From positions 321,755-385,754 of the forward strand of contig CAVZWR010000019.1 in NCBI GenBank assembly GCA_963779025.1: a stretch of DNA of 64,000 nt, in the 5' to 3' direction. The notes under the pieces are model-generated. The model worked only from the letters and a program-made list of their open reading frames with translations. It was not told where the DNA came from and searched no databases. The position numbers and the translations under genes are program-made. This document shows, in pieces, positions 1 through 64,000 of this stretch; position 1 is the first letter of the stretch; every line of letters starts with the position of its first letter. This DNA is from an uncultured Actinomycetes bacterium (GTDB lineage: Bacteria > Actinomycetota > Thermoleophilia > Gaiellales > Gaiellaceae).

Positions 1-220
1 AGGCGACGATGCGACGGGTCGCCGAGCGGATCGGCATCGACTGGGCGCCGTCGCTCCTCCGGCCGACATTCAACGGCCGCCCGATCGGCGCGAACTCGAG
101 CGACCCGGCGGTGCAGGGCGAGGGGATCCTGCCCGAGCGCGCCGCCGCGTTCTCCGACGACCCCGCGCGATCGCCGAGCTCGCCGGCGACCGCTACGAGC
201 GGGCGGCCGCGCTCGCATGA
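1..220 (+). CDS. sulfotransferase, 3' end only (starts upstream of window; one frame change near 155-165)
   Basis: RIGIDWAPSLLRPTFNGRPIGANSSD..GILPER parallels the C-terminus of the 1622-3152 sulfotransferase (RIGIEMAPDLLVPTFNSRPIRANSSD..GILPER). The tail IAELAGDRYERAAALA* (cf. IERLAGDLYERATP) lies in a neighbouring frame. TGA 218-220 overlaps the next ATG (ATGA). Confidence 0.7.
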   Translation, partial: GDDATGRRADRHRLGAVAPPADIQRPPDRRELERPGGAGRGDPARARRRVLRRPRAIAELAGDRYERAAALA

Positions 221-1621
221 AGATCCTCTTCGTCCTCGAGCACCCGGGCGTCGGGCCGCTCGTGCCCGCGCTGCGGCTGCTCCACGAGCGCGGCCACGAC
301 GATCCACCTCGCCGCACGGCGGGTGAAGTCCGGCCACTCGCACAACGAGCTCCAGGCGCTCGCGGACGAATGCGAGCGGATCACGTACACGAAGCTCCCT
401 TCCGGGGGCGGGTCGAAGCTCGCGCGCGAGGTCCGGCTCGCGCTCGACTACCGCCGCTACCTGGAGCCGCGCTACCGCGACTCGCCGAAGCTGCGCGCGC
501 GGGCGGAGAAGGCCGCGCCGCCGCCGCCTCGCGCGCGTCGCCGGGCTCGCTGCTCCGCGCCGTCGAGCGCTCGCTGCCGCCGCCGGCGACAGTGCTCCGC
601 TACCTGCGCAAGGAGCAGCCGGACCTCGTGCTCGTCACGCCGCTGATCGACCTCGGCTCGCGCCAGGCCGACTGGCTGCGCGGCGGCGAAGCGGCTCGGC
701 ATCCGCACCGGCTTCCCGGTCTTCAGCTGGGACAACCTGACGAACAAGGGGCTCGTCCGCGACGAGCCCGACCTGACGCTCGTCTGGAACGACCTCCAGG
801 CCCGCGAGGCGGAGGAGCTGCACGGCGATCTCGCCCGCGCGGATCCGGATCACGGGCGCGCCGGTCGGCGACCCGTGGTTCGACTGGCGGCCGAGCCGCA
901 GCCGCGAGGAGTTCTGCGCCGAGGTCGGGCTCGACCCGTCGCAGCCGATCGTCCTCTACCTGTGCTCCTCCGAGTTCGTCGCGCCGAACGAGGTCGAGTT
1001 CGTCCCGCGCTGGCTCGAGCGCCTGCGCTCGCGCGGCGGGCTGCTCGCGGAGGCCGGCTACCTGATCCGGCCGTACCCGGACACCGCACAGCGCTGGGTC
1101 GCCGCCGGGCTCGACGGGCCGCAGGTGCGCGTCTGGCCGCGGTTCGGCGAGTCGCCCCACGACGACACCTCACGGCGGGACTACTTCGACTCGATCTACC
1201 ACGCGTCTGCGGTCGTCGGGATCAACACGACGGCGCAGATCGAGAGCGCGATCGTCGGCCGGCCCGTGCACACGATCCTCGCTGAGGAGTTTTCAGAGAC
1301 ACAGCAGGGGACCCTGCACTTCCGCTACCTCGAGGCGGCGGAGTTCGGGCTCCTCCACGTCGGGCGCACCTGGGACGAGCACGCGCGCGCAGCTGGAGGC
1401 CTCGCTCCGCGGCGAGGGCGACGACGGGCGGAACGAGCGGTTCCTGAGGCGCTTCGTCCGGCCGCTCGGGCTCGACCGGCCCGCAACGCCGCTCCTCGCC
1501 GATGCGATCGAGGAGCTCGGCGCAAGGCCCGCCCCGGCGCCGGAACACGAGCCCGGCCTACGCGCCGCTCGTCCGCCGGCTCGCCACGCGGCTCGCGGCC
1601 GACGGCGAGAAGCGGGAGAAA
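217..1621 (+). CDS. uncharacterised GT-B-like 'SWDNLTNKG' family protein, paralog 1; frame-disrupted (at least 6 frame changes), 3' end unresolved
   Basis: Starts MKILFVLEHPG. Segments in three frames align colinearly with the paralogs at 3149, 4694 and 17998 (FSWDNLTNKGL, SAVVGINTTAQIESAIVGRPV, GTLHFRYLE, FVRPLGLDRPATPLLADAIEEL). Frame changes near 300, 515, 680, 830, 1385 and 1545. No stop codon found before the next reading frame. Confidence 0.6.
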
Positions 1622-3152
1622 GTGCGCGAGCCGGAGCCCCGTCGGGGAGCTGCGGCGAACGATCGACCGGCTCGCGAGCGGCGATGCGCCGATCCTCGCG
1701 GGCCCCTGGACCGGCGACGAGATCGGCGAGCTCCTCTACTGGATCCCGTTCCTCCGCTGGGTCCAGACCGCGAACATCGGGCTGCGGGAGCGGCTGTACG
1801 TGCCGCGCGCGCCACAGCACGAGGTCTGGTACGCGGGGATCGGCGCGGGCACTGAAGCGCCCGAGGGCGCGAAGCGGCTCGACCCGCAGCTCGTCCTGGC
1901 CGCGCGCTCCGAGCTCGCCCGCCAGGATCCCGGCCTGCGCATCCAGCACCGTCTGCTCGAGTTCGCGCCGCTCCCCGGGGCCGGCCCGTACGAGGGCCCG
2001 TACGGTGTCGAGGCCTACCTCGCCGTGCTCGCCGGGCAGCCGGCCAGGGCGACCGGCGCAGAGAACGCCGACCCGGACGACCTGCTGGTCGCCGAGTCCT
2101 TCCTCGCGCGACCGCCGTTCGGACGCCTCGAGGTCGACCGGCCCCGCGCCGCCTGGGAGCGCCTGACCGAGCTCGAGGAGTACGAGGCACTGACCGAGAT
2201 GAGGTCGAACCAGCTCGTGCCGGTGCGTGAGCCGCTCGTCCTGATCTCGCAGATCCAGCGCTCGGGCGGGACGCTGCTCAGCCAGCTCTTCGACGGCCAC
2301 CCCGAGGTGCACGCCCACCCGCACGAGATCTGCATCGGCAAGCCGGACAAGTGGGACTGGCCGCCGCTCGACCTCGGCGCGCCCGAGACGTGGTTCGCGA
2401 CCCTGCACGAGCCGCTGCTCGCCGAGTGGATCGAGACGGGCTTCGTCAAGGATCTGACCGAGCTGCGCAAGCAGCGCGACCCGGACGTCTTTCCGTTCGT
2501 CTTCTCGCTCAAGCTCCAGCGCGCGATCTTCGAGCGCTGCGCGGCCGGCGCGACGACCGAGCGCGAGGTGCTCGACGCGTACTTCACCTCGTACTTCAAC
2601 GCCTGGCTCGACAACCACAACCTCTACACGGGCGCCAAGAAGGCCGTGGTCGGCTTCACGCCGCGGCTGGCGATGGAGCTCGACCGGGTCGAGCGGTTCT
2701 TCGCCGCCTACCCGGACGGCCTGCTGGTCTCGATCGTGCGCGACCCGCGCGGCTGGTACGCCTCTGCTCGGCGCCATCGCAAGTACTACGCCGACCTGGA
2801 GCAGTCGCTCGGGCTCTGGCGTGCCTCGACCGAGTCCGCGCTCGAGGCTGCGGACCGCCACGGCGACCGCGTGGTCGTCCTCACCTACGAGGCGCTGCTC
2901 GATGACCCGGAGGCGGCGATGTCGACGCTGGCCGCCCGGATCGGGATCGAAATGGCGCCGGACCTGCTCGTCCCGACCTTCAACAGCCGCCCGATCCGGG
3001 CCAACTCGTCCGATGCGGTCGAGCGCACCGGCATCCTTCCGGAGCGCCGCGACGCCTTTCGTGACGTCCTCACAGCTGACGAACTCGGGCAGATCGAGCG
3101 TCTGGCCGGCGACCTGTACGAACGGGCGACCCCGGTATCGTTCGCCACATGA
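1622..3152 (+). CDS. two-domain sulfotransferase: ~190 aa uncharacterised N-terminal domain plus PAPS-type sulfotransferase domain; start uncertain
   Basis: Open frame to TGA 3150-3152. P-loop-like motif LISQIQRSGGTLLSQL and 3'-phosphate-motif-like SIVRDPRGWYAS. N-domain contains APILAGPWTGDEIGELLYWIPFLRW. The only candidate start is GTG 1622 in a neighbouring frame (indel in the C-run at ~1637-1640); otherwise the ORF is fused to the preceding gene. Confidence 0.75.
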
Positions 3153-4697
3153 GCTCCAGGCCTCGCCTGCGAGTCCTTCTCTTCGCAGGCGGGCCTCGCT
3201 TCTACATGCGCCAGTTCTCCTCGCTCGTCACCGAGCTGTCGGCGCGCGGGCACGAGGTGCACGTCGCCTTTCAGCCGACCAAGGGCGAGCTGGACGAGTC
3301 GGCGAAGCAGCCCGGCGTGACGCACGGGTTCGCGCCGGCGCGGCCCGAGTCCGACGGCTGGCGCTCCGTCGCCTGGCTCGTGCGCGGGCTCGAGGATCTC
3401 GCGCGTTACACGCATCCGCGCTACGAGCGCGCGCCGGAGCTGCGGGAGCGAATGACCACGAAGATCGGCGCCCAGCTGCGGAAGTCGGGCGAGTTCGAGC
3501 CGGTCGTCCGCCGGCTCGCGCTGCGCCTCGTCCGCCGGCTCTCCGCCGGGCCGGACGCGAGGCTCTCGGAGCGCGTCATCCACCGCGCGGCCCGGCTCGA
3601 GCAGGCGATCCCGACGAGCCCGGAGATCGACGCGTACATCCGCGAGCGGGCGCCCGACGTCGTCCTCGCCACGCCGGTCGTCAACCGCGCATCGACCCAG
3701 GTCGAGTTCCTGAAGAGCGCGCGCCGCCTCGGGATCCCGTCCGGCACGCTCGTCGCGAGCTGGGACAACCTGACCAACAAGGGCCTGCTGAAGTGGGCGC
3801 CCGAGCGGGTCTTCGTCTGGAACGAGATCCAGGTGCGCGAGGCGGTCGAGCTGCACGGGATGCCGGCCGACCGCGTCGTCGCGACCGGCGCGCAGCTCTT
3901 CGACCCGTGGTTCGAGCGGCGGCCCTCGACCGAGCGCGGCGAGTTCGTTCGCCGTCTTGGTCTCGATCCGGCCGAGCCCTACGTCCTCTACACCTGCTCG
4001 AACCCGGCGATGACCGACATCGCGGAGTCGGGGTTCGTGACCGGGTGGATCGAGGCGCTTCGCTCGTCCGGCGACGAGCGGCTGCGCCGTGATCGGGATC
4101 GCCGTGCGCCCCCACCCCAACGACCTCGACCACTGGCGCGAGGTCGACCTCGCGCGCTTCGACAACGTCGCCGTCTGGCCCCGCGAGGGAACCTCGGTGG
4201 TCACCGACGACGCCCGCGCCGACTTCTTCGACTCGCTCGCGCACAGCGCGGCGGTCGTCGGGATCAACACGACGGCGATGATCGAGGCGGCGATCGTCGG
4301 CAAGAGCGTGCTCACGGTGCTCGCGCCCGGGTTCGCGCAGGAGAACACCCTCCACTTCGACTACCTGCTCGAGGAGAACGGCGGCTTCCTCCACGTCGCG
4401 CCGTCGCTCGACGAGCACGTCGGCCAGCTCTCGCACGTCCTCGACGAGGACGAGGAGGGCGCGGCGAGACGGCGCGCCTTCGTCGAGTCGTTCGTCCGCC
4501 CGCACGGGCTCGACCGGCCTGCGACGCCGATCCTCGCCGACGCGATCGAGGAGCTCGCCGGGCTGCCGGTGGAGCACTGGCGGCCCTCGGCGCTCCGGCC
4601 GGTGCTCGCGGCGGAGGCGGCGCTCTGCTCGCTCGCGGCCTCCCGGCCGAAGCAGGCCGGGGGCGGAAAGGCGCGGCGCGTCGGCGCCACGGCGTGA
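3149..4697 (+). CDS. uncharacterised GT-B-like 'SWDNLTNKG' family protein, paralog 2; frame-disrupted (1)
   Basis: ATGA overlap with the upstream stop. RVLLFAGGPRFYMRQ..ARGHEVHVAF and VASWDNLTNKGLLKW, then a frame change near 4085 into AVVGINTTAMIEAAIVGKSVLTVL..TLHFDYLLEENGGFLH..FVRPHGLDRPATP. Confidence 0.75.
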
Positions 4698-6282
4698 AGG
4701 TCCTCTTCTTCGTCCGCGAGCTGCCGTACGTGCAGCGGATCTACGCACCGCTCCTCGACGAGCTGATCGACCGCGGGCACACGGTTCATCTCGCCTTCAC
4801 GAAGAAGACGCGCTGGGACCGGATCGAGCGCGGGCTCGCCGGGATCGAGCGCGAGGGGTTGACGTTCGGCTACGCACCGCACCGGCGGCACGCCGACGGC
4901 TGGCGCCGCGTTGCCTGGCTCGTTCGCTCGGTCGCCGACCTCGCGCGCTACGCGCACCCGCGCTACGACAGCGCCCCCCGGCTGCGCAAGCGGGTGACCG
5001 AGAAGGTCCTCCAGCGGATCGAGACCGGGCCGTACCTGGAGCCGATCGGACGCTCGCTGGCGCTGCACATCGGCCGCAGGCTCGCCTCCGCGACCGACGC
5101 CGCGTACTCGGCGCGCGTGATCCGCAGCGCGGCGCGGCTCGAGCAGGCGGTGCCGACGAGCCCGGAGATCGACGCCTTCATCCGCACCCACGCACCCGAC
5201 GCCGTGATGGTCACGCCGGTCGTGAAGTACGGCTCCGACGAGGTCGAGTACCTGAAGAGCGCTCGCGCTCTCGGCGTACCCGCGGCGACCGCGGTCGCGA
5301 GCTGGGACAACCTGACGAACAAGGGCCTGCTCAAGTTCGACCCGGAGCGGGTGTTCGTCTGGAACGAGGCCCAGCGGCGCGAGGCGATCGACCTGCACGG
5401 GATCTCGCCCGAGCATGTCGGTCGCGACCGGCGGGCAGCTCTTCGACAAGTGGTTCGAGCAGCGGCCGAGCCGCTCGCGGGAGGAGTTCATGGCCGAGGT
5501 CGGGCTCGACCCGGCGGAGCCGTACGTGCTCTACCTGTGCTCGAGCCCGTTCGTCGTCCGCAAGCCGCAGGCCGAGATCGAGTTCGTTCTCCGGCTGCTG
5601 CAGGGGATGCGGGCGGGCGACGACGAGCGCTTGCGCGCGCACCGGCCTCGCTGGTGCGCCCGTACCCGCGCGGCTCGCAGTGGCGGAAGGTCGATCTCGC
5701 CTCGCACGGGAACGCAGCGTGGTGGCCGCCGAAGCACGCCTACGCGACCACGGAGCAGGGGATCGCCGACTTCTACGACTCGATCGCGCACAGCGCCGCC
5801 GTGGTCGGGATCAATACGACGGCGATGATCGAAGCGGCGATCGTCGGGAAGCCGGTGCTGACGATCCTGGAGCCGAAGTTCGCCCAGGAAGGGACGCTGC
5901 ACTTCCATCACCTGCTCGAGGAGAACGGCGGCTTCCTGCACACCGCGTCGTCGCTCGAGGAGCACCTCGGCCGGCTGGCCCGCGTGCTCGACGAGGGCGA
6001 GGAGGGCGCCGAGCGGCGGCGGCGGTTTGTCGAGGCGTTCGTCCGCCCGCGCGGGCTCGACCGCCCCGCGACGCCGATCTTCGCGGACGAGGTCGAAGAG
6101 CTTGCGAGCGCCAGGTCAGCCGACTCCGGCACTCGCCGCTGCTTCGCGCGCTGCTCGACGTCGAGGCGGCGGCCTGCACGGCCATGATCGTCGCGACGCC
6201 GCTGGTTCGCCCGCTGCGCCTTCGGCTGGTCGGAGCCGCCCGCAGCCGCGGGCTGGTCGCTCCGCCGACCCGCGTGCGCTAG
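4694..6282 (+). CDS. uncharacterised GT-B-like 'SWDNLTNKG' family protein, paralog 3; frame-disrupted (3)
   Basis: GTGA overlap with the paralog 2 stop. VKVLFFVRELPYVQ..RGHTVHLAF, VASWDNLTNKGLLKF, AVVGINTTAMIEAAIVGKPVLTIL, TLHFHHLLEENGGFLH. Frame changes near 5412, 5640 and 6105. Stop at 6280-6282. Confidence 0.75.
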
Positions 6283-6286: not shown

Positions 6287-7312
6287 TCAGACCTGCCAGC
6301 CGTAGCCGCCGAGGTCGATTCCGGTCAGCTCGGCCGTGACCCGGTTGCTTTCCACGTAGCGGTCGCCGACGATTTCGGCGGCGACTCGGTGGAGCGACTT
6401 CTCGTTCCGCGCGGCCACGGTCTCCGGGATCGCGACCTCGAAGAAGCGATGGCGCGACAGGCGCTTCAGAGTTCGGTGCTTGTCGAGGTCGACAAGCGGC
6501 GCCGGGTTCACTTCCGAGCGCACGAACCGGTTCAGGTGCCGGAGCACGAGCCGGGACGTCGGCGACAGCGTCCCTTGGACGTGCGTGTCGTACGGCAGCG
6601 AGTCGAGCACGGTCTGCCCGAGCGGCCGCCCGGCGAAGTCGGCGATCGCGGTGACGAACTCGCGCGGCTCGCGGACGAACTGCTCGTACGTCCGTACCAG
6701 CAACGCCTCGGGGCCGAACAGCTCGCTGTAGCGCCGGATCAGGTGGTGGTACTCGAAGTGGCGGAAGTCGAACCACGGCACGCGCAGGTTCGTCGTGAAG
6801 GGCGGATCGAGGAACTCGCGCAGCGACTCGGGCCCGCCTGCCTTCACGTACCGGCTGTAGTTCGAGACGATGGCGCTCCGCTGCTCGCGGATCACGATCA
6901 GCACCTGCCCTTCAGGGAAGACCTGCCGCAGTCGGTCGGCGATCGCTCCGCTGTCGTAGCCGCCCGAGACGGCGTGCCCCGAGAGGCGCTCGAACGAGAC
7001 GACCGGAACGAGACCGTCCGCGAGGATCGGCGCGAACAGGGCGTCGAACTCGGCGCGGGAGGCGCGCGGGTCCCACTCCGACCACCGCGCGAGGATCAGT
7101 TTTCGCACCGGGTGGTCGTCCGCCGCCTTGCCAACCCAGCGGAGACCGGTTCCGTCGCCGGCGAAGAGGAATTTCTGGAGCCAGCTCGACCCCGTGCGGT
7201 GGTAGCCGACGTGGACGAGGATCGCGTCAGGCAACCGGGGACTCCACCGCGTCCCCCCGGGCGCGCGCTCGGCCACGATCCCGAGCGCGGCCCGTTCGAG
7301 CGTGTCGGCCAC
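6287..7312 (-). CDS. sulfotransferase family protein
   Basis: Intact 341 aa ORF. LVHVGYHRTGSSWLQKF resembles the PAPS 5'-phosphosulfate loop and LIVIREQRSAIVSNYS the 3'-phosphate motif. GTG 7312 gives an 86-nt overlap with the upstream gene, so a later start is possible. Confidence 0.8.
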   Translation of the reverse strand: MADTLERAALGIVAERAPGGTRWSPRLPDAILVHVGYHRTGSSWLQKFLFAGDGTGLRWVGKAADDHPVRKLILARWSEWDPRASRAEFDALFAPILADGLVPVVSFERLSGHAVSGGYDSGAIADRLRQVFPEGQVLIVIREQRSAIVSNYSRYVKAGGPESLREFLDPPFTTNLRVPWFDFRHFEYHHLIRRYSELFGPEALLVRTYEQFVREPREFVTAIADFAGRPLGQTVLDSLPYDTHVQGTLSPTSRLVLRHLNRFVRSEVNPAPLVDLDKHRTLKRLSRHRFFEVAIPETVAARNEKSLHRVAAEIVGDRYVESNRVTAELTGIDLGGYGWQV

Positions 7313-8624
7313 CGTGAGCGCGTTCTCCCCGGAACTGGTCGACGAGCAGCGGCTGGCCCGGGTGGCACTGCCGCATTGCCATGTGCAGGAACTGCGCGAT
7401 CCGCTCCGGGTCGGGACGGAAGGCCAGCAGCTCCGGCACCTTCGCGTGGATGTCCGCGAACGAGTGGACGTCGAGCGTGACCCCGAACCCGGCGTAGTAC
7501 GGGTCGCCGAGGGTCAGCACCGGCTTGTCGTAGAGGAGTGCCTCGAGCCCGACGGTCGAGCCGATCACGACCACCCCCTCAGAGCGGCGGATCAGCTCGT
7601 GCGTGCTCGTGTACGGGTTGACCAGCCGGACGTTCGGCCGCCGGCGCAGGCGGTGCAGGAGGCGGAAGGAGTTACGCCCGAGCGACATCGGGTGCTCCTT
7701 CAGCACGAGGTCGTGGCCCTGCGGCAATGCGTCCGCGACCTGCTCGACGAGCGAGGCCTGGTCGGCGCAGTGAGGAACGATGCGCTGGATCTTGTAGTCG
7801 TCGGTGACGTGGAGCGGGAAGTAGACGAACGGCCGTCCCGGGTCGAGCTTGTCGTAGAAGGGCCGCGCCGCCCGAGCCCGCATCCACTCCGAGGCGTTCT
7901 GGTGCAGCAGCCGCCAGGGGCGGAGGTAGTCGTTCTCACGGTCGTCGCCCAGCTTGCGCTCGACGTGCCCGGCGAAGACCTTCGCGCGGCGGGCCTCGAC
8001 GGGGACGCGCCGGAAGTCGCGGATCGGCGTCGCCGCCTGCGTGAACGACGTCCGGAACGCCTCGACCTCCCGGCGCTCCTCCGGGGTCAGCTCGCGCAGC
8101 TCCTCGGGCGGCGCGATCTTCGCGTCGAGCGTGTCGACGTAGACGCGCAGTGGGTTCGGGAAGATCGTGTGCAGGATGAAGAGCACCGGGATCGAGTGCG
8201 CGTTCGCGACCAGGTGCGCGACGATCCGGATCGTCTCGTTCCCGATCTCGGGCAGCGCCACGTCCGGCTTGGTCTCGGCGACGATCCGCTCCAGGGCCCG
8301 GAAGCGGTCGACGGTGCGCCGGATGCACCACTCCTCCGGCCGTCCCGCGCACGCCTTGTCGTTGCGGTAGACGTCGCGGAGGTGCGGGATCGGGTAGGTC
8401 GCCTCGATCCGGCGCACCTGCGCCTCGAGGTCGACCGGCGCGGCGAGCTCGGCGATCACGTCCTGGATCGCGCGCGCGTCGACGCCCCGGGAGCGCAGCT
8501 CCCTGGCAGCGCGCGGCGACTCGGTGAGATGGACGACCGAGTGGCCGCGCCGCTCGAGCTCGCGCCCGACGACGCCGTAGAACTCGCTCTCGTAGGTCTG
8601 GAGGCTGGTGATCAGGAACCGCAT
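7227..8624 (-). CDS. capsule polysaccharide biosynthesis protein, KpsS/KpsC (Capsule_synth)-like
   Basis: 465 aa ORF. RPFVYFPLHVTDDYKIQ, LVLKEHPMS and VVVIGSTVGLEALLYDKPVLTLGDPYYAGFG match the signature blocks I recall for KpsS/KpsC. The last ~35 aa are Arg/Ala-rich and overlap the next gene, so the true C-terminus may be in another frame. Confidence 0.75.
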   Translation of the reverse strand: MRFLITSLQTYESEFYGVVGRELERRGHSVVHLTESPRAARELRSRGVDARAIQDVIAELAAPVDLEAQVRRIEATYPIPHLRDVYRNDKACAGRPEEWCIRRTVDRFRALERIVAETKPDVALPEIGNETIRIVAHLVANAHSIPVLFILHTIFPNPLRVYVDTLDAKIAPPEELRELTPEERREVEAFRTSFTQAATPIRDFRRVPVEARRAKVFAGHVERKLGDDRENDYLRPWRLLHQNASEWMRARAARPFYDKLDPGRPFVYFPLHVTDDYKIQRIVPHCADQASLVEQVADALPQGHDLVLKEHPMSLGRNSFRLLHRLRRRPNVRLVNPYTSTHELIRRSEGVVVIGSTVGLEALLYDKPVLTLGDPYYAGFGVTLDVHSFADIHAKVPELLAFRPDPERIAQFLHMAMRQCHPGQPLLVDQFRGERAHGGRHARTGRARDRGRARARGDAVESPVA

Positions 8625-8638: not shown

Positions 8639-9682
8639 CTAGCTCCGGAAGGCGTCGGCCAGCAGCTCGCGGAAGCGCTCGGGAGAGTGTTCACGTTCGA
8701 CGTACTCGCGGCCGCGCCGGCGCATCTCCTCGAGGCGGGGCGGGTCCGCGAGCAGCTCGCGCACGGTCGCGGCGAGCTCCTCGGGCGAGAAGCCCCCGAG
8801 GACGACGCCGCCGCCCGAGTCGCGGACGAGCGCTTCCGGGCCTCCGCTCGGCGTGGTCACGACCGGCAGCCCGGTGGCGAGCGCCTCGGCGGCGGCGATC
8901 CCGAAGCCTTCCTGCCACGAGGGGAGCACGAACAGCGTCGCGCGGCGGAGGTGCCCGGCGACCGACGGCACCGGTCCCGTCGCCTCGACGTGGTCCGGGA
9001 GCTGCGCGGGCGGGGCGCCGATCAAGAGCACCCGCGCATCCGGGATCGCGGGCAGCGCGTCGAGCAGCAGGCGCACGTTCTTGCGTGTGTCGTCGGCGCG
9101 CCCGACGAACGCGAGCACCGGGCGCTCGAGCGTCGCCCGCCACTCCTCGTCCGGCGCCGGCTCGAAGGAGGTGACCGGGATCGGGATCGGGAGGATGCCG
9201 ACCGCGTCCTCGTCGAGGCGGCCGGCACGAGCGACACTTGCGCGGCTCCACGGAGAGGTGGCGTAGACGTGTTGCGCTCCCTGCAGCACCCGCCGCTCGA
9301 GCCGGCGAAGGATCGGTCCATTCACGCGCAGCGCGGCCCGGCGGGACGTTCGCAGCCCCGGCCTGCGGCCCGCCCACTCGTCGGCGAGGCCCGTGCCGAT
9401 CCAGCACGAGTAGGGTCGCCCGCTCCGGACTGCGCCGTAGCCGAATGAAGCCGCTGTGGTCGCGATCCAGATGTCCGACGCCTCCCGCAGCTGCGACGTG
9501 ACCCGGCGGGCGAACGCGAGCTGGTTGCCGGCGTCGAGCCGGCGCACGCCGGACGGCATCCGGCAGTAGAGAAGCTCCGGCTCGCGCCCGAGCTCGACCG
9601 CGGCCGCGAGGAACGCATCCGTCTGCGCCTTCGCGCCGCCTCCGAAGGCGGGATCCATCCCGATCACGGCCAGGTCGGTCAC
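8639..9682 (-). CDS. glycosyltransferase family 4 (GT-B)
   Basis: 347 aa from GTG 9682. GT4 E-x7-E block LFVLPSWQEGFGIAAAEALATGLPVVTTPSGGPEALV. The upstream part of the 524 aa track ORF is Pro/Ser/Arg junk antisense to the FkbM gene. Confidence 0.85.
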   Translation of the reverse strand: MTDLAVIGMDPAFGGGAKAQTDAFLAAAVELGREPELLYCRMPSGVRRLDAGNQLAFARRVTSQLREASDIWIATTAASFGYGAVRSGRPYSCWIGTGLADEWAGRRPGLRTSRRAALRVNGPILRRLERRVLQGAQHVYATSPWSRASVARAGRLDEDAVGILPIPIPVTSFEPAPDEEWRATLERPVLAFVGRADDTRKNVRLLLDALPAIPDARVLLIGAPPAQLPDHVEATGPVPSVAGHLRRATLFVLPSWQEGFGIAAAEALATGLPVVTTPSGGPEALVRDSGGGVVLGGFSPEELAATVRELLADPPRLEEMRRRGREYVEREHSPERFRELLADAFRS

Positions 9683-9688
9683 AGCGGG

Positions 9689-9698
9689 ACGGTAGCCT
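9689..9698. promoter_or_regulatory. back-to-back -10-like boxes for two divergent, probably leaderless genes
   Basis: TAGCCT (plus strand, 9693-9698) lies 6 nt before ATG 9705. TACCGT (minus strand, 9694-9689) lies 6 nt before GTG 9682. The start codons are only 22 bp apart. Confidence 0.4.
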
Positions 9699-9704
9699 CC
9701 CGAT

Positions 9705-10613
9705 ATGAGCGCCGCACGGTCGCGACCGGGAGGTGCGCTCAAACGTCTGATCGGGCGACGGAATCCGATCGCCCGCGAGAAGGCGACGCGCCGGCGGTTT
9801 CTCGAGAGCGCCGAGTCGTTCACTCCGTATGTGGTCGCCGAGCGCCGGGAGGGAACCTTCGTGCTCCCCGTGCACGGCGCCGCGAAGCTCTTCGCGAACC
9901 CCCGGCGGACCGAGTTCGTCGTTCTCGCACGGGCGCTGCAGACGCTGAGGGAGCACGGCAGCGGGACGAACGGCGGGACGATCGTCGACGTCGGGGCAAA
10001 TATCGGAACGACGGTCGTGCCGGCGCTGGTCCTGCATGGGTTCGAACGTGGGGTCGCAATCGAGCCGGATCCCGAGAACCGCAAGGTGCTGCGGGCGTCG
10101 CTTGCACTGAGCGGGGTCGACGAGCAGGTTGCGGTCGTCGGGGCCGCAGCCTCCTCGGGTCCCGGCGAAGCGAGCTTCACCCGGAAACGGTGGAGCGGAG
10201 GGAAGCACCGCATCGGCGCCGGCAGGCTCAGAGACGACCCCGCTCAGGTTTCCGACCTCATCCGCGTCGAGACCGTGTCTCTCGACCAGCTTGCCGAGCA
10301 GGGCGTGATCGACGCCGACACCGTCTCCCTCCTCTGGCTCGACGTCCAAGGGCACGAGGGGGAGGTTCTCGAGGGCGCGTCGTCGCTGCTCCGGCGTCGC
10401 GTACCGGTCGTGTTTGCGCTTCGACCGCGCGAGCTCTCCCGCCCGGAAGTCCTGGCCGAGCTGCTCGGGCGCCACTACGACACCCTCGTCGACCTTCGGC
10501 ATCCGTCACTGAAAGAGGGCTGGACGCCGGAGCTCGAGACGGTCGACGCGCTCGAGCAGCGCTTCGGCCTGCGCTTGACGACTGACATGCTCGCCTTCAA
10601 CCGCGCCGACTAG
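9705..10613 (+). CDS. FkbM-family methyltransferase
   Basis: Intact 302 aa. SAM loop IVDVGANIGTTVV and LLWLDVQGHEGEVLEGA block, typical of Methyltransf_21/FkbM. Confidence 0.85.
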   Translation: MSAARSRPGGALKRLIGRRNPIAREKATRRRFLESAESFTPYVVAERREGTFVLPVHGAAKLFANPRRTEFVVLARALQTLREHGSGTNGGTIVDVGANIGTTVVPALVLHGFERGVAIEPDPENRKVLRASLALSGVDEQVAVVGAAASSGPGEASFTRKRWSGGKHRIGAGRLRDDPAQVSDLIRVETVSLDQLAEQGVIDADTVSLLWLDVQGHEGEVLEGASSLLRRRVPVVFALRPRELSRPEVLAELLGRHYDTLVDLRHPSLKEGWTPELETVDALEQRFGLRLTTDMLAFNRAD

Positions 10614-10625
10614 CCTTGGGGCGTT

Positions 10626-11855: not shown

Positions 11856-12956
11856 GGTCGTGTTCTGGGCGTCGCTGGCCGCCCTCGTCTGGACGCACGC
11901 CGGTTACCCGCTCGCAGCCGCGGCGGCCGCCCGTGCGCGGCGGCGGGGCGTCCGCGCCGGTGACGTCCTCCCGAGCGTGACGCTGATCGTCGCCGCCCAC
12001 GACGAGGAGGCGGTGATCGAGCGGCGCATCGAGAACCTGCTCGCGCTCGACTACCCGCCTGCGTCGCTGGACATCGTGATCGCGTCCGATGCCTCCGGCG
12101 ACCGCACGGACGAGCTGGTCGAGGCGGTCGCGGCGCGCGAGCCGCGAGTGCGGCTGCTGCGCTGCCCGCGCGGCGGCAAGGTGGCGGCGCAGGACCGGGC
12201 GGTGCGCGAGAGCTCCGCCGAGGTCGTCGCGTTCGGCGACGCGAACGCGATGTGGTCGCCGGACGCGCTCCGCCTGCTCGTCCGCTCCTTCGCCGATCCG
12301 GACGTCGCGTACGTCTGCGGGCGGCTCGTCCTGACCGACGCCGCCGGGGACAACCGCGAAGGCGTCTACTGGCGGTTCGAGACCTGGCTGCGCGAGCAGG
12401 AGTCGGCGCTCGGCTCGGTCACCGGCGGGAACGGGGCGATCTACGCCGTGCGCCGGTCCGACTACGTCGAGGTCGACCCGCGGTTCGGCCACGACCTCTC
12501 CCTGCCGTACGTGATGGTGCAGCGCGGCCGGCGCGCGGTCTACGACCCCGAGGCGATCGCGCGCGAGCGGCCGACGCCGGGGATCGGCACCGAGTACCGG
12601 CGCAAGGTGCGCATGTTCGAGCACTGCTGGCTGATCGTCGCCCGCGGGAAGATGCTCCGCCGGCAGCCGCCGCTCTACTTCGCCGAGATCCTCTCGCACC
12701 GGCACCTGCGGTATGCCTCGGGGCTGCTCCACCTCGTCGCTGCTGGGGACGAACGTCGCGCTCGTCGCCGCCCGCGAGGGCTGGGTCTACGACGTCGCGC
12801 TCGGCCTCCAGGTCGCGTTCGTCGCGGTCGCCTTCGCCCGGCCGTCGATCGCCGCGCTACTACGCCCTCGTCACCTGGGCGACGGTGGTCGCGCTCTGGA
12901 ACTACCTGCGCCGCGGCGTGCCCGCGACGTGGGACGCCGCCGAGGGCACGCGCTGA
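11842..12956 (+). CDS. membrane-embedded GT2 glycosyltransferase (synthase-like architecture); frame-disrupted (2)
   Basis: GTG 11842 overlaps the upstream stop. N-terminal TM segment, then VTLIVAAHDEEAVIERRIENLLALDYP, IVIASDASGDRT, GGNGAIYAVRR, EYRRKVRM. The C-terminal TM region is read in two further frames (changes near 12735 and 12850). Confidence 0.75.
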
Positions 12957-15449: not shown

Positions 15450-15465
15450 CCCTACCCTCTCGTTC

Positions 15466-15865: not shown

Positions 15866-15868
15866 GCG

Positions 15869-16975: not shown

Positions 16976-16988
16976 CTACATTCCCCCC

Positions 16989-17993: not shown

Positions 17994-17997
17994 AGCG

Positions 17998-53409: not shown

Positions 53410-54319
53410 GCATCGGGGCCTGCGCGCGGTACCAGGCGATCGTCCGCTCGAGGCCCTCGCGTAGCGACGTCCGCGCCTCGAACCCGAACAGCTCCTGCGC
53501 GCGCGAGGCGTCGAGGCTGCGCCGCGGCTGGCCGTTCGGCATCGACTCGTCCCAGGTGATCTCGCCGGTGAATCCGGTCAGCTCGGCGATCAGCTCGGCC
53601 AGCTCGCGGATCGAGATCTCCTTGCCGGCGCCGATGTTGACGGGCTCCTCGCCGTCGTAGCGCTCGGCGGCGAGCAGGAACGCCTCGGCCGCGTCCTCGA
53701 CGTAGAGGAACTCGCGCGTCGGCGAGCCGTCACCCCAGAGCACGACCTCCTCCGGCGACTCGTGCATCTTCCGGATCAGGTCCGCGATCACGTGTGCGTT
53801 CGTCGGGTGGAAGTTGTCGCGCGGCCCGTAGAGGTTCGCCGGCAGGAGGAAGATCGCGTTCGTCCCGTACTGCTCGCGGTAGGACTGCGCGCCGACGAGG
53901 ATCGACTTCTTGGCGACGCCGTAAGGCGCGTTCGTCTCCTCCGGGTAGCCGTTCCAGAGCTCGTCCTCGTGGAAGGGCACCGGCGTGTGCTTCGGGTACG
54001 CGCAGACCGTGCCGGCGAGGACGACCTTGCCGACGTCGTGCCGGCGCGCCAGCTCGAGCACGTGCGCGCCCATGATCAGGTTCGCGTACCAGTAGCGCCC
54101 AGGGTTCGCGCGGTTCGCGCCGATCCCGCCGACCTCGGCGGCGAGGTGGAAGACGACGTCGGGCTCGGCGTCCTCGAACAGGCGCTCGGCGTCGTCCCAG
54201 CGGGTCAGGTCGTAGTCGGTCTTGCGCGCGACGAAGACGTCATGGCCGACTGCCTGGAGCCGCTCGACGAGGTGCGAGCCGAGAAAGCCCCCTCCGCCCG
54301 TGACGAGGGCTCGCGTCAT
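53396..54319 (-). CDS. fcl: GDP-L-fucose synthase (GDP-4-keto-6-deoxymannose 3,5-epimerase/4-reductase)
   Basis: Intact 307 aa. [61 protein letters not shown] overlap with the upstream gene. Confidence 0.85.
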
Positions 54320-56926: not shown

Positions 56927-57916
56927 GTGGACGCCCGCCGCGCGCTCATCACCGGTATCGCCGGGCAGGACGGATCCCTGCTCGCCGAGCTCCTGCTCGA
57001 GAACGGCTACGAGGTCTTCGGCGTCGTGCGCCGCGCGACCTCGGAGCAGTTCGACAACCTCGAGGCGGTTCGCGACCGGATCGAGCTCGTGCAGGCCGAC
57101 CTGCTGGACGAGCTCTCGCTCGTCGATGCGCTGAAGACGATGAAGCCGCACGAGGTCTACAACCTCGCCTCGCCGTCGTTCGTGCCGATGTCGTGGCGCC
57201 AGCCGGTGCTCACCGCGGAGTTCGCGGCCGTGGGCGTGACGGCGCTGCTGGAGTCGATTCGGCTCGTCGATCCGGAGGTGCGCTTCTACCAGGCCTCTTC
57301 GAGCGAGATCTTCGGCGAGCCGCGCGAGGTGCCGCAGACCGAGGAGACCGCTCTGGCGCCGGTGACGCCGTACGGCGTCGCGAAGGCGTACGGCCACCTG
57401 ATCGTCCGCAGCTACCGGAAGCGCTACGGCCTGTTCGCGTGCTCCGGGATCCTCTTCAACCACGAGTCGGCCCGGCGGCCGACGGACTTCGTGCCGCGGA
57501 AGGTCGCGCGCGCGGCGGCGGCGATCTCGCTCGGACTGGAAAGCGACCTCTGGCTCGGGAACCTCGACGCCAGGCGCGACTGGGGCTACGCCGGCGACTA
57601 CGTGCGCGCGATGTGGCTGATGCTCCAGCAGGAGGAGGCGGACGACTACGTGATCGCGACCGGCGTTCCGCACAGCGTCCGCGAGCTCGTCGAGCTCGCG
57701 TTCGGGCGCGTCGGGCTCGACTGGCAGGAGTACGTCCACATCGACGAGTCGCTCGTCCGCGGGGCCGCCGAGCTGCACGACCTGGTCGGTGATGCCTCGA
57801 AGGCGCAGGCGCGGCTGGGCTGGCAGACGACGCTCGACTTCGAGGGGCTCGTACGCCTGCTCGTCGACGCAGACCTCGAACGCCTGCGGCGCGAGCAGGC
57901 TACGGTCGAGGCGTGA
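56927..57916 (+). CDS. gmd: GDP-mannose 4,6-dehydratase
   Basis: ALITGIAGQDGSLLAELLLENGYEVFGVVRR, FYQASSSEIFG, TPYGVAKAYG, ILFNHESARRPTDFVPRKV, RDWGYAGDYV. Confidence 0.92.
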   Translation: MDARRALITGIAGQDGSLLAELLLENGYEVFGVVRRATSEQFDNLEAVRDRIELVQADLLDELSLVDALKTMKPHEVYNLASPSFVPMSWRQPVLTAEFAAVGVTALLESIRLVDPEVRFYQASSSEIFGEPREVPQTEETALAPVTPYGVAKAYGHLIVRSYRKRYGLFACSGILFNHESARRPTDFVPRKVARAAAAISLGLESDLWLGNLDARRDWGYAGDYVRAMWLMLQQEEADDYVIATGVPHSVRELVELAFGRVGLDWQEYVHIDESLVRGAAELHDLVGDASKAQARLGWQTTLDFEGLVRLLVDADLERLRREQATVEA

Positions 57917-60996: not shown

Positions 60997-61994
60997 GAAT
61001 CGCCGTCTGCCGCCCTCAGGTGCCGTTCGCCCGCGGCGGCGTCGAGATCTTCACGGACGACCTCGTCGCCGAGCTCGCCAAGCGCGGGCACGACGCCGAG
61101 CTCGTCACCGTTCCCTTCAAGTGGTATCCGGGCGAGCGCGTGCTGACCCAGGCGTTCCTCTGGCGGCTGCTCGACCTCGACGAGGCGGACGGGCGGCGGA
61201 TCGAGCTGGTGATCGCGACAAAGTTCCCCAGCTACGCCATCCGGCATCCGAACAAGGTCGTCTGGCTCGTCCACCAGTTCCGGCAGGCGTACGAGCTCGA
61301 CCGGACCGAGCTCGGGCAGTTCGGCGAGTCACCCGAGGAGCGCGCGATCCGTCGTCGCGTCCAGGAGCTCGACCGGGTCGCGCTGGGAGAGGCGAAGAAG
61401 GTCTTCGCTACCTCCCGCAACGTCGCCGACCGGCTCGAGCGCTCGACCGGGATCGCCGCAGAGGTGATGCCGCATCCGCCGCAGGAGCTTCCGTACCACT
61501 GCGACGAGTACGGCGACTTCGTCCTCTCGGTCGGCCGGCTCGACCGCGCCAAGCGGATCGACCTGCTGCTCGAGGCCGCCAAGCGCGGCGGGTTCCAGGT
61601 CGTCGTCGCCGGCGACGGGCCCGACCGCGAGCGGCTCGAGTCGCTCGCGAACGGCAGCGCGCGCTTCCTCGGCCGCGTCTCGGAGGAGGAGCTCGCCGAC
61701 CTGTACGCACGCTGCCTCGCCGTCTACTACGCGCCGGTGGACGAGGACTTCGGGATGGTGCCGTACGAGGCATTCCTGTCCGAGAAGCCGGTGGTGACGA
61801 CGACCGACGCGGGCGGGCCGCTCGAGGTCGTCACCGACCGTGTCACGGGCCTCGTGACCGAGCCCCGCGCCGAGGCGCTTGCCTCGGCATTCGCGAGCCT
61901 GAACCGCGACGACGCCGCTGCCTGGGGCCGCGCCGGCCGCGCGCTCGCGGAGCGCGTCTCGTGGGACGCGACGATCGAGCGTCTCGTTTCGTGA
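60993..61994 (+). CDS. glycosyltransferase family 4
   Basis: TTGA overlap with the upstream stop. Intact 333 aa. VEIFTDDLVAELAKRGHDAELV, YYAPVDEDFGMVPYEAFLSEKPVVTTTDAGGPLEVV (E-x7-E). Confidence 0.85.
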   Translation: MRIAVCRPQVPFARGGVEIFTDDLVAELAKRGHDAELVTVPFKWYPGERVLTQAFLWRLLDLDEADGRRIELVIATKFPSYAIRHPNKVVWLVHQFRQAYELDRTELGQFGESPEERAIRRRVQELDRVALGEAKKVFATSRNVADRLERSTGIAAEVMPHPPQELPYHCDEYGDFVLSVGRLDRAKRIDLLLEAAKRGGFQVVVAGDGPDRERLESLANGSARFLGRVSEEELADLYARCLAVYYAPVDEDFGMVPYEAFLSEKPVVTTTDAGGPLEVVTDRVTGLVTEPRAEALASAFASLNRDDAAAWGRAGRALAERVSWDATIERLVS

Positions 61995-63094
61995 AGGTCG
62001 CCTACTACTCGCCGCTGCCGCCGTCCCGCTCGGGGATCGCCGACTACTCCGCGCTGCTGATCCCGGCGCTCGAAGAACGGATGGAGGTCGTGGTCGCGAA
62101 GCCGGGCCGCTTCCGCCGAGAGCCCGACGCCGACGTCGCGCTCTACCACGTCGGCAACGACCCGGCCGAGCACGGCTGGATCGTCGAGGCGCTGCGCCGT
62201 CGACCGGGGATCGTCGTGCTGCACGAGTTCGTCCTCCACCACCTCGTCTCCGGGATCACGCTCGCCCGCGGCGACCTCGAGGGATACGCGGACGCGCTCG
62301 AGCGCGACGCCGGGCCCGAGGGCCGAAAGCTCGCGCGGGCGGTAGCGGACGGCCAGATCAGGCCGCTCTGGGAAACGCGCCCGACCGACTACCCCCTCGC
62401 CGGCGAGGTGCTCGACCTCGCGTCCGGGTTGGTCGTCCACTCGCGCTACGTCGAGGAGCGCGCCCGAGCCGCCGGCTACAGCGGGCCGGTCTGGCAGGTG
62501 CCGATGCCCGCCTGGCCGGTGCCCGACATCGAGCCTGCGGAGCTGGAGGGGAGCCCGCTGCTCGGTACGTTCGGGCACGTGAACGAGAGCAAGCGGATGC
62601 CGCAGCTGTTCGAGGCGTTCGACCGACTGCGTGCCCGCCGGCCGGACGCACGGCTGCTCGTCGTCGGCGCCTGGTCGCCCCGCTACGCCGATCTTGCCGT
62701 CCCCGAGGGCGTGATTCGCAGGGACTACGTGCCCGAGGACGAGCTCTGGCGTCTGCTCGACGCCTGCGACGCGGTTGTCTCGCTACGCTGGCCGACCATG
62801 GGCGAGACCTCCGCGGCGGCGATCCGCGCGCTCTCGCTCGGCAAGCCTCTCGTCGTCAGCGACGTCGGTTGGTTCGCGGAGCTGCCGGGCTCCGTGGCCG
62901 CCAAGGTGCCGGTCGGCGAGGGCGAGATCGAGCAGTTGGAGCGCGCCCTCGAGCAGGCGGTGACGAGCCCGGAGATGGGTGCCGCCGCGCTCGAGCTTGC
63001 CAGGACGGAGCATTCGCTCGACCGTGTGGCAGACCTCTACGCCGAAGCGCTCTCGATCGGGACCGGCTCGAGCCTGTCCCTCGACGCCGCATGA
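61991..63094 (+). CDS. GT4-like glycosyltransferase, tandem paralog A
   Basis: GTGA overlap with the upstream stop. Intact 367 aa. VKVAYYSPLPPSRSGIADYSALLIPAL, VVSLRWPTMGETSAAAIRALSLGKPLVVSDVGWFAELP. Confidence 0.75.
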   Translation: MKVAYYSPLPPSRSGIADYSALLIPALEERMEVVVAKPGRFRREPDADVALYHVGNDPAEHGWIVEALRRRPGIVVLHEFVLHHLVSGITLARGDLEGYADALERDAGPEGRKLARAVADGQIRPLWETRPTDYPLAGEVLDLASGLVVHSRYVEERARAAGYSGPVWQVPMPAWPVPDIEPAELEGSPLLGTFGHVNESKRMPQLFEAFDRLRARRPDARLLVVGAWSPRYADLAVPEGVIRRDYVPEDELWRLLDACDAVVSLRWPTMGETSAAAIRALSLGKPLVVSDVGWFAELPGSVAAKVPVGEGEIEQLERALEQAVTSPEMGAAALELARTEHSLDRVADLYAEALSIGTGSSLSLDAA

Positions 63095-64000
63095 AGGTCG
63101 CCTACTACTCACCGATGCCGCCGTCGCGCTCCGGGATCGCCGACTACTCGGCGCTGCTCCTGCCGGAGCTCAGCACGCGGATCGACGTCGTTGTCGCGCG
63201 GCCCGGACGCTTCCGGCGTGATCCCGCCGCCGACGTCGCGCTCTACCACATTGGCAATGACGCGGAGGCGCACGGCTGGATCGTCGAGGCGCTCCGCCGC
63301 CGGCCGGGTGTCGTCGTCCTGCACGACTTCGTCCTCCACCACCTCGTCGTCGGCCTGACGTTCTCGCGCGGCGACGCGGCCGGCTACCTCGCCGCGATGG
63401 AGCGCGAGGGCGGCCTCGTCGGGCGCCTGCTCGCCTACGCCGTGCTCGACAACAAGCTGCCCCCGCTCTGGGAGACGCGGCCCGAGGACTACCCGCTCGC
63501 CGGCGAGATCCTCCGCGACGCGACCGGCCTGATCGTCCATTCGCACTACGTCGAGGATCGCGCCCGCGCGACCGGCTACGACGGGCCGATCGTGAGGATC
63601 CCGCACCCTGCCTGGCCGATCCCGGAGCTCGCGGCCGCGCAGTTCGACGGCGACCCGCTCTTCGGCTGCTTCGGCCACCTGAACGAGACGAAGCGCATCG
63701 AGGAGCTCGTGCACGCGTTTGCCCGTGTCCGGGAGCGCCACCCGAACGCGCGGCTCCTGCTCGTCGGCTCGCTCGCCGTGCGGCTCGCGCGGCTCGAGCT
63801 CCCCGAGGGCGTCGAACACCGTGACTACGTGCCCGAGGACGAGCTCTGGTCGCTGATGGCCGCGTGCGACGCGATCGTCAGCCTGCGCTCGCCGACCATG
63901 GGCGAGACCTCCGGGAGCGCGATCCGCGCGCTCTCGCTCGGCAAGCCGCTCGTCGTCTCGGACGTCGGCTGGTTCGCCGAGCTGCCGGACGAGGCCGTGA
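63091..64000 (+). CDS. GT4-like glycosyltransferase, tandem paralog B (3' end beyond window)
   Basis: ATGA overlap with the upstream stop. MKVAYYSPMPPSRSGIADYSALLLPEL.. is colinear with paralog A at roughly two-thirds identity by eye. The frame is open to the window end. Confidence 0.75.
   Translation, partial: MKVAYYSPMPPSRSGIADYSALLLPELSTRIDVVVARPGRFRRDPAADVALYHIGNDAEAHGWIVEALRRRPGVVVLHDFVLHHLVVGLTFSRGDAAGYLAAMEREGGLVGRLLAYAVLDNKLPPLWETRPEDYPLAGEILRDATGLIVHSHYVEDRARATGYDGPIVRIPHPAWPIPELAAAQFDGDPLFGCFGHLNETKRIEELVHAFARVRERHPNARLLLVGSLAVRLARLELPEGVEHRDYVPEDELWSLMAACDAIVSLRSPTMGETSGSAIRALSLGKPLVVSDVGWFAELPDEAV

Follow-up and report, generated by a model that had tools for sequence, protein, structure and literature searches.

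The window analyzed here, the whole 64,000-nucleotide stretch of contig CAVZWR010000019.1 from an uncultured Actinomycetes bacterium (assembly GCA_963779025.1), contains genes for sulfotransferases (STs) of the type dependent on 3'-phosphoadenosine 5'-phosphosulfate (PAPS) together with many genes for glycan assembly. The source, a soil bacterium, belongs to the Gaiellaceae, a family of the class Thermoleophilia, phylum Actinomycetota; the closest genome is 'uncultured Actinomycetes bacterium MFD07639.bin.2.20' (95% identical), and the next relatives are labelled Gaiellaceae, Thermoleophilia and Solirubrobacterales. GC content is 69-75% along the whole window, and Rfam and tRNA scans of it found no RNA gene. 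A previous interpretation made from the letters alone (the sequence-only reading) proposed a single 64-kb locus with three STs producing a sulfated, methylated fucose/xylose/uronate polysaccharide. Its central observation, genuine PAPS-type STs amid glycan-assembly genes in a high-GC actinobacterial genome, was confirmed. The genes are described here as forming two distinct sets for glycan synthesis, A (1 to ~19.5 kb, extending leftwards beyond the window) and B (31-64 kb). Taken as a whole, this explanation is considered somewhat probable; its best-supported part is that the STs belong to set A, a lineage-conserved, uncharacterised module.

The first ST is the C-terminal part of a fusion gene on the plus strand. 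Its domain (~2142-3152) matches Sulfotransfer_3 with 55.8 bits against a required 27, and the match covers positions 4-215 of the 216 in the profile. Residues R207-S-G-G-T211 of the 5'-phosphosulfate-binding (5'-PSB) loop, E229, and the pair R367 and S375 of the 3'-phosphate-binding (3'-PB) motif are invariant in 40 homologues. The loop aligns with those of TPST, OLS and SULT1C2, and the invariant glutamate, 22 residues past the loop, corresponds to the 'PE' glutamate of the OLS sulfotransferase. The AlphaFold model of 2142-3152 has pLDDT values mostly of 75-95, with two loops lower, and its best PDB matches by Foldseek are the CurM ST (4gbm), the OLS ST (4gox), TPST1/2, Stf9 and 3rnl; the top 20 matches are all PAPS sulfotransferases or the PAPS-dependent retinol dehydratase, which has the sulfotransferase fold. 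This fold and the scores of both STs above the gathering cut-offs of the Sulfotransfer_1/_3 hidden Markov models (HMMs) agree with what the sequence-only reading had anticipated.

The second ST, of another type, is encoded at 6287-7234 on the minus strand (315 aa) and matches Sulfotransfer_3 with 36.0 bits (cut-off 27) and Sulfotransfer_1 with 34.3 bits (cut-off 22). The 315-aa protein P0241 is 100% identical to its product; the gene had been assigned correctly as an ST, but its end is at 7234 and not at 7312, 78 nt shorter. Its loop reads 'GYHRTGSSWLQ' (family form 'GYH(K/R)TGS-WLQ'), with T14, W18 and L19 invariant in 38 homologues, as is the 3'-PB pair R116...S124. Neither ST has a signal peptide or a transmembrane (TM) segment. 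The gene shares 8 nt with the end of the Capsule_synth gene upstream of it, including the stop of the latter, as seen in the related locus L076. Moreover, the second ST is absent from L002, a locus of a 95%-identical metagenome-assembled genome (MAG), at the site L002:14447-14685; therefore the sulfation gene set varies among very close strains.

Of the three STs originally proposed, these two are confirmed by HMM matches and motifs, whereas the segment at 1-220 holds only the C-terminal ~65 residues of an ST and no P-loop. This fragment (3-203, plus strand, detected by tblastn) is a paralogue of the first ST whose gene starts to the left of the window; residues 286-350 of a Gaiellaceae ST (362 aa) align to window positions 6-203 with 48% identity. 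It is 92% identical to the syntenic stretch of L002, and in the relative L075 the gene upstream carries Sulfotransfer_3. Since only C-terminal residues are included, the N-terminal P-loop lies outside the window.

The sequence-only reading had placed an ST gene at 1622-3152; the ST domain is real, but the actual gene is a fusion spanning 217-3152. Its N-terminal part (217-1640) is a GT-B-like domain, paralogue 1 of what is called here the 'SWDNLTNKG' family, which has no Pfam match and matches Gaiellaceae proteins of 759-790 aa by tblastn. It carries ~8 one-base insertions, with frame hops at 300, 524/540, 684, 826, 1386, 1552 and 1633. The middle domain (1641-2141, 'GPWTGDEIGELLYWIPFLRW'), delimited by tblastn to the long forms of L001 and by the consensus of 46 long forms, has no assigned function and corresponds to the first part of the C-terminal extension of long-form GT-B-like members; its AlphaFold model has pLDDT <50 at residues 14-112 and is moderate to good from ~residue 113. 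Both here and in close relatives of the window, the ST comes immediately after this domain. P0003, an 809-aa uninterrupted open reading frame (ORF) from an independent metagenome contig, carries the GT-B-like domain, the middle domain and Sulfotransfer_3 in one frame. Because P0003 reads all three domains in one ORF, 217-3152 is a single natural GT-B-like/ST fusion gene, with a predicted product of ~980 aa. The first-ST family as a whole has at least 1,791 homologues in many phyla; members with 41-60% identity are known from Planctomycetota, Chloroflexota, Verrucomicrobiota, Acidobacteriota, Proteobacteria and Obscuribacterales. Bacterial sulfation had been called uncommon, which is fair for characterised chemistry but not for gene content.

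The fusion gene is not the only one in which the reading frame changes. At ~72% GC the raw ORF lists were swamped by shadow ORFs, and two simple gene callers based on GC content at third codon positions (GC3) left large gaps until frame hops were permitted. Genes were called with a codon log-odds model trained on the window, in which local segments were allowed in any frame; the coding segments were joined per gene, and all of them were scanned against Pfam and selected ones against NCBIfam. The coding signal changes frame within evident single genes, across the window and across gene types, with ~54 frame junctions without a nearby stop codon, which are probable single-base frameshifts (for example at 300, 684, 826, 1386, 4090, 5420, 30069, 34506 and 40896). 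In comparison with L002, 1-bp insertions are found at 300, 524/540, 684, 826, 1386, 1552, 1633, 4090 and 5420, and they coincide with the called frame changes. Pfam domains are continuous over pieces in differing frames, such as an AMP-binding domain whose profile positions 1-384 are distributed over three frames. These continuous domains, the L002 insertions, the one-frame P0003 contig and the intact metagenome protein P0121 (described below) indicate that the frame hops are single-base errors and not gene boundaries, probably consensus errors of a long-read MAG assembly. Frameshift errors linked to GATC methylation were considered and rejected: of 79 junctions, 18.8 would be close to a GATC site by chance and 14 were, which is no enrichment. 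As a consequence of the frame hops, public protein sets for this genome hold truncated or chimeric ORFs, such as the 675-aa P0001.

The same frame hops could be understood as a locus in decay, in which the ~50 frameshifts would be real pseudogenising mutations and no product would be made. Frame hops do break many genes, and the NCBI protein set does hold the truncated 675-aa ORF. However, housekeeping genes such as the AMP-binding synthetase are hit too, comparison with a 95%-identical MAG shows the hops to be single-base insertions, orthologues with 85-95% identity are intact, and coding-type GC3 is kept on either side of every frame hop. Decay of the locus is therefore hardly credible.

The GT-B-like domain of the fusion gene is one of four paralogues in the window (217-1640, 3149-4697, 4694-6187 and 17995-19497, all on the plus strand), which share 74-77% DNA identity by self-blastn. 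Paralogue 2 (3149-4697) contains one frameshift at ~4090, and its frame-corrected product is 95% identical over 100% of its length to P0121 (514 aa). Paralogue 3 (4694-6187) has frameshifts at ~5420 and ~5640 and was delimited by DNA paralogy, tblastn to L001 and the L002 indels; paralogue 4 (17995-19497) was delimited by DNA paralogy and tblastn to L001. Their common motifs include SWDNLTNKG, RPHP and GINTTAMIEAAIVGK, and no Pfam match was obtained for any paralogue in the window. These four proteins are additional to the 17 recognisable glycosyltransferases (GTs) of the window, which comprise 11 GT4-like, three GT2, one Glyco_trans_1_2, one Capsule_synth and one GT-C PMT_2 protein and bear out the earlier count of at least 14.

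At least 2,499 matches to the GT-B-like family were obtained, and wherever a source names them the name is 'hypothetical protein'; a separate, exhaustive search (E<=1e-30) counted 1,910 clusters at 50% identity. The model of P0121 (pLDDT 87.5) shows a GT-B fold of two Rossmann domains and has 381 PDB matches at E<=1e-3, led by UDP-GlcNAc 2-epimerases, GT1 enzymes and WaaG, with target-normalised TM-scores of 0.50-0.64 in the top 50. A profile search of PDB sequences found no solved relative of the family, and the NCBIfam model BFO_1060 reached 32.8 bits against a cut-off of 200. Comparison with Capsule_synth by hhalign pairs the 'HP' motif and the following glycine-rich helix. Regarding domain architecture, a Gaiellaceae MAG encodes long forms of 759-790 aa with an additional C-terminal domain, and the 46 other long forms include one fusion with an ST, four with FkbM, TylF or class-I methyltransferases, and one with a GT2. 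This is the fusion pattern that a sugar-building family coupled to modifying enzymes would produce.

The module is conserved in MAGs of Gaiellales and of other Thermoleophilia. Its conservation was examined in 74 loci containing ST homologues, with flanks of up to 10 kb. GT-B-like genes are present in 44 of them (149 copies, up to 8 per locus), Capsule_synth in 20, the second ST type in 19, a small phosphoglycosyl transferase (PGT) in 18 and the adjacent GT4 in 14. Wzx was found in two of the 74 loci and Wzy in one; the C5-epimerase, the deacetylase and the PCP-like protein encoded further along the window (PCP, polysaccharide co-polymerase) were found in none. Four independent contigs, from Gaiellaceae and MFD MAGs, show the same gene order: GT-B-like and ST genes are interleaved, followed by a HAD hydrolase (three of the four contigs), Capsule_synth, two or three GT4s and a GT2, and their gene lists contain no exporter. 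In the 95%-identical L075, Capsule_synth and the GT4s are fragmented or uncalled. The window is collinear with L002 from 1 to 13.9 kb (91-98% amino acid identity), except for the second ST, and in L002 and L075 the cluster extends to the left of the window with more GT-B-like genes and a full-length first ST. In one related MAG, a MazE/PIN toxin-antitoxin pair is inserted within the conserved ST/GT-B-like module (L078:5793-6441).

This conservation bears on whether the STs could act on acceptors other than carbohydrates, such as peptide or protein tyrosine or a small metabolite, with their proximity to glycan genes being incidental. The closest structures are indeed the CurM/OLS sulfotransferases and the tyrosylprotein sulfotransferases. 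Nevertheless, the first ST is fused to a GT-B-fold enzyme, ST and GT genes are repeatedly interleaved across phyla, and no precursor-peptide or polyketide synthase genes were seen in the Pfam scans of the window. A non-carbohydrate acceptor is consequently regarded as very improbable, and the acceptor of both enzymes is presumed to be a sugar.

The rest of set A begins with a GT-B protein of the Capsule_synth (KpsS/KpsC-like) type (7227-8624, minus strand; PF05159, 72.3 bits), which is 54-96% identical in 20 related loci. It is followed by a GT4 (8639-9682, minus strand), an FkbM methyltransferase (9705-10613), a second GT4 (10626-11855), a membrane GT2 (11836 to ~12950) and a small PglC-type PGT (12944-13531), the last four on the plus strand and all assigned by Pfam. 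The genes from 8639 to 13531 are collinear with L002 at 91-98% amino acid identity and recur beside ST homologues in 7-18 loci. Between 13626 and 17993, Pfam, translation and self-blastn identify a third FkbM methyltransferase, which is on the minus strand and frameshifted, a pair of GSCFA-family genes, and an ATP-grasp gene whose N-terminal part is also present as a duplicate. This region contains a ~1.1-kb segmental duplication (14744-15863 versus 16259-17390, 81% identical) that takes in the 3' portion of one GSCFA-family gene plus the 5' portion of the ATP-grasp (PylC-like N) gene and leaves a truncated ATP-grasp copy at 15454-15866.

KpsS and KpsC are the Capsule_synth beta-Kdo transferases of ABC-transporter capsules (Kdo, 3-deoxy-D-manno-oct-2-ulosonic acid). 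The resemblance of set A to them consists of the PF05159 domain in 7227-8624 (72 bits) and of the 'HP' motif region, which aligns weakly with the GT-B-like family. A KpsS/KpsC-type ABC capsule was rejected as an explanation: the Capsule_synth protein scores 32.8 bits against a cut-off of 600 with the KpsS equivalog model, and the Pfam scans of the window revealed no KpsMT, KpsDE or Kdo-synthesis genes. Pfam families of ABC transporters and of the Kdo pathway were not found among the neighbours of the STs in the relatives either.

The composition of set A could also correspond to a sulfated glycolipid or a lipid-anchored oligosaccharide instead of a long polysaccharide. There are precedents in the mycobacterial sulfolipids and in the glycolipid anchors primed by KpsS/KpsC; furthermore, a Capsule_synth homologue is present, the membrane GT2 weakly matches Glyco_transf_21 (ceramide/lipid glucosyltransferase type; 26 bits, cut-off 21.7), and the conserved module has no polymerase, chain-length regulator or exporter. 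On the other hand, the 4-8 GT-B-like paralogues and 2-4 GT4s per locus suggest a long or complex glycan, a PGT of the polyprenyl-phosphate type is present, and the KpsS equivalog score is far under its cut-off. A glycolipid product is accordingly judged a reasonable but improbable variant, although less improbable than a non-carbohydrate acceptor.

The region between the two sets (19.5-31.2 kb) starts with genes for extracytoplasmic proteins (19549-28329, plus strand, from Pfam matches and signal peptides), including two PQQ-type beta-propellers. A tandem repeat of two ~490-bp units, 84-88% identical (21057-21536 and 21549-22040), has a weak coding signal; each unit opens with a Shine-Dalgarno-like GGAGG and an ATG, after which the sequence resembles a signal peptide, and neither has a Pfam or Rfam match. 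After a gene without assigned function (22151-22923, minus strand) there is a C5-epim_C protein (~23040-24342, plus strand) with a signal peptide and a C-terminal Ig-like tail, whose D-glucuronyl C5-epimerase domain (PF06662, 55.5 bits) aligns to positions 6-186 of the 188 in the profile; it has no sequence match to solved GLCE structures. It is followed by a PgaB/IcaB-like polysaccharide deacetylase, also with a signal peptide (24354-25090, plus strand). This epimerase/deacetylase pair is flanked by the PQQ-type beta-propeller proteins and suggests an extracellular modification of a polymer, unrelated to the STs. A heparan-sulfate-like pathway combining the C5-epimerase, the deacetylase and the STs was rejected, given that these genes are not co-conserved in the 74 ST loci; in addition, the epimerase and the deacetylase carry signal peptides and the STs do not, which places them in differing predicted compartments.

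The PCP proposed at 26485 keeps its two-TM and coiled-coil topology, but it has no HMM support and its 614-aa ORF is a frameshift artefact; corrections at 27189 and ~27370 give two separate genes, a PCP-like two-TM protein of ~295 aa (26485 to ~27380) and a GT2 (27385-28329), both on the plus strand. Pfam then identifies glyoxalase, enoyl-CoA hydratase and acyl-CoA synthetase genes (28339-31159), which are unrelated to glycans and separate sets A and B; the AMP-binding domain over three reading frames mentioned above belongs to the acyl-CoA synthetase.

Set B (31209-64000) is a heteropolysaccharide cluster of the Wzx/Wzy type according to Pfam, NCBIfam and synteny, and the Pfam scan of its coding segments found no ST between 31 and 64 kb. 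Its first gene encodes an FkbM methyltransferase. Between this gene and the UDP-xylose synthase (UXS) lies a secreted protein of ~750 aa with a signal peptide (31964-34226, minus strand, five frame pieces), for which neither Pfam nor NCBIfam gave a match; it may be an enzyme that processes glycans. UXS (34324-35266) had been predicted correctly, with a match to human UXS1 at E = 1e-107, and is followed by a glycoside hydrolase-like protein, a GT4 and an epimerase. The Wzy-like protein announced at 38532 is likewise well supported (38532-39832, minus strand; Wzy_C, 59.5 bits), while the Wzx-like protein (39964-41251) is a borderline case, with 25.8 bits for Polysacc_synt (cut-off 28.2) and 23.3 for Polysacc_synt_3 (cut-off 23). 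Four GT4/GT1 genes (41242-45520), a gene without assigned function (45517-46221) and a large PGT (46380-47754) come next. The two PGTs of the window, as expected, match Bac_transf with 213 and 210 bits, the latter being the score of the set B enzyme.

After the large PGT there are a methyltransferase, a Glyco_trans_1_2 gene and a group formed by a GT2 plus DUF2304, a PhyH-like protein and GT-C PMT_2 (49716-53409). The GT2 (polyprenyl-phosphate-sugar-synthase-like), the small membrane protein DUF2304 and the GT-C PMT_2 are close together and resemble a glycosylation system of three components that would add side branches outside the cytoplasm; the PhyH-like dioxygenase (50852-51673, minus strand) lies between DUF2304 and the GT-C. 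The genes fcl (53396-54319, minus strand) and gmd (56927-57916) are the best NCBIfam matches, as had been read, but their scores (288 and 355 bits, respectively) are below the trusted cut-offs. An SDR dehydratase-like gene and two methyltransferases lie between them, and gmd is followed by DUF4344, a GT4, a methyltransferase-GT4 fusion and two GT4-like genes. The latter are tandem paralogues (61992-62888 and 63092-63988, 77% DNA identity), the second of which crosses the right edge of the window. Four methyltransferases were counted in 31.2-64 kb; the whole window has seven (three FkbM and four class I), within the seven to eight expected.

In the related MAG loci L030 and L048, the cluster is syntenic with 38.6-54 kb of the window, and the genes homologous to 44468-45502 and 45517-46218 are separated by an inserted ST of the first family and an extra GT4. 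The window's own two genes are only 15 nt apart, with nothing inserted. According to this comparison, the first-ST family does serve Wzx/Wzy clusters in this lineage, though not in cis here. One super-locus could be imagined, in which the STs of set A would decorate in trans the methylated fucose/xylose/uronate lipid-linked repeat unit of set B. Only ~12 kb (19.5 to 31.2 kb) lie between the two sets, no flippase could be recognised in set A, the orthologues of set B in L030 and L048 include a member of this ST family, and sulfation of a Wzx/Wzy repeat unit is established for synechan (PMC8205485). Against it, Wzx, Wzy, UXS and gmd hardly ever occur next to ST homologues, set A owns a priming transferase and at least nine transferases, unrelated genes lie between the sets, and set B of the window is empty at the exact site where its relatives have an ST. 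A single super-locus is regarded as unlikely, while being the least improbable of the alternatives set out here. The claim of one 64-kb glycan locus is not sustained, in view of the glycan-unrelated genes at 28339-31159 and the rarity of Wzx/Wzy beside STs; a fucose/xylose/uronate composition of the sulfated polymer is unsupported too, as the Wzx/Wzy cluster here has no ST.

Under the preferred explanation of two separate sets, the enzymes of set A would most likely assemble, on the cytoplasmic side of the membrane, a glycan linked to a lipid carrier, with the STs working together with the GT-B-like family. The cytoplasm is the sole compartment in which PAPS is available. Because of this, and because neither ST has an export signal, sulfation is predicted to be cytoplasmic; the sulfate (and methyl) groups would be attached one residue at a time, ahead of export. 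The product would be a sulfated glycoconjugate of the cell envelope. A sulfated glycoconjugate is likely and is the most economical reading of STs among glycan genes, and a sulfated surface glycan is plausible. Set B would then be an ordinary Wzx/Wzy heteropolysaccharide cluster with its own priming enzyme and its own xylose and fucose nucleotide-sugar genes, and its product would be separate from that of set A.

Several observations weigh against this explanation. Approximate CysC and CysD queries against the window and 77 related loci detected no gene for PAPS synthesis in the window or in any actinobacterial locus, a negative of little weight; the one exception in these 77 loci, which counts in favour of the explanation, is a gene for APS kinase (adenosine 5'-phosphosulfate kinase, CysC-like) directly upstream of a first-ST homologue in a Deltaproteobacteria MAG (L055:9249-9707). 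The structure matches of the GT-B-like family are generic, which leaves its glycosyltransferase role putative, and its hhalign comparison with Capsule_synth is weak (24% probability). The nearest structural relatives of the first ST, the CurM ST and TPST, act on non-sugars. Many genes are frameshifted, and their function in the source strain is assumed from intact orthologues. Moreover, no flippase or ABC transporter was found in set A or in the <=10-kb flanks of relatives with precomputed gene calls. As no exporter is apparent in set A, its glycan might leave through the Wzx of set B, and the model of a single polymer keeps a small probability, though it lacks positive support.

Several known systems can be compared with set A. 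The nearest characterised one, the xss cluster of Synechocystis PCC 6803, which produces synechan, contains two STs and eight GTs in a Wzx/Wzy cluster, and the presence of sulfate was shown chemically (PMC8205485). Both systems have two STs of differing subfamilies (PF13469/PF00685-type) beside many glycosyltransferases (PMC8205485), and in both the sulfate is presumed to be placed on a lipid-linked unit that is exported afterwards. However, the xss STs are inside the Wzx/Wzy/PCP cluster, whereas the STs of the window belong to a separate module without Wzx/Wzy that is dominated by an unannotated GT-B family, has a GT-ST fusion and comes from another phylum; sulfate is chemically proven for synechan only and is predicted here from genes. 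Within the phylum, the nearest precedent is the wps-1 cluster of Actinoplanes missouriensis, a Wzx/Wzy cluster with two STs and a predicted, not shown, sulfated exopolysaccharide (PMC13390465, 2026). It resembles the window as an actinobacterial glycan cluster with two STs, a methyltransferase and a glycoside hydrolase (PMC13390465). It differs in its compact Wzx/Wzy/Wzz arrangement, in STs annotated as Gal/GlcNAc-type and heparan-sulfate-type, in having neither the 'SWDNLTNKG' family nor Capsule_synth, and in its class (Actinomycetes versus Thermoleophilia). Concerning individual enzymes, the ST domains of CurM/OLS, Stf0/Stf9, NodH and RaxST/TPST share the PAPS-binding fold and the 5'-PSB and 3'-PB motifs with the STs of the window, but identity is <=19%, their acceptors differ or are unassigned, and none is fused to a GT-B-fold enzyme. 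The literature search found no paper linking sulfotransferases with Gaiellales or Thermoleophilia. Set A differs from the xss and wps-1 clusters in its lack of Wzx/Wzy, its GT-B-fold family, its GT-ST fusion and its conservation across a class rich in uncultured members.

Bacterial sulfated polysaccharides have been stated to be known only from cyanobacteria (PMC8205485, PMC13390465), and for actinomycetes a sulfated polysaccharide has so far been a prediction only. More speculatively, the 'SWDNLTNKG' arrays interleaved or fused with STs could represent an unrecognised and widespread pathway for heavily sulfated envelope polymers in the abundant soil Thermoleophilia and in some other phyla; this is a tentative proposal, held with clearly less confidence than the division into two sets. 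If it were true, this would be the first sulfated polysaccharide system beyond cyanobacteria with a dedicated new glycosyltransferase family. In any case, a large unannotated GT-B-fold family has been defined, and its ST and O-methyltransferase fusions provide a handle for biochemical characterisation and may be useful for the enzymatic synthesis of sulfated glycans.

Thermoleophilia groups are among the commonest and least cultured soil bacteria. If the module does make a sulfated glycan, Gaiellales, Solirubrobacterales and other Thermoleophilia would normally carry polyanionic, sulfated polymers on their surface, with a bearing on soil aggregation, metal and water binding, and sulfur cycling.

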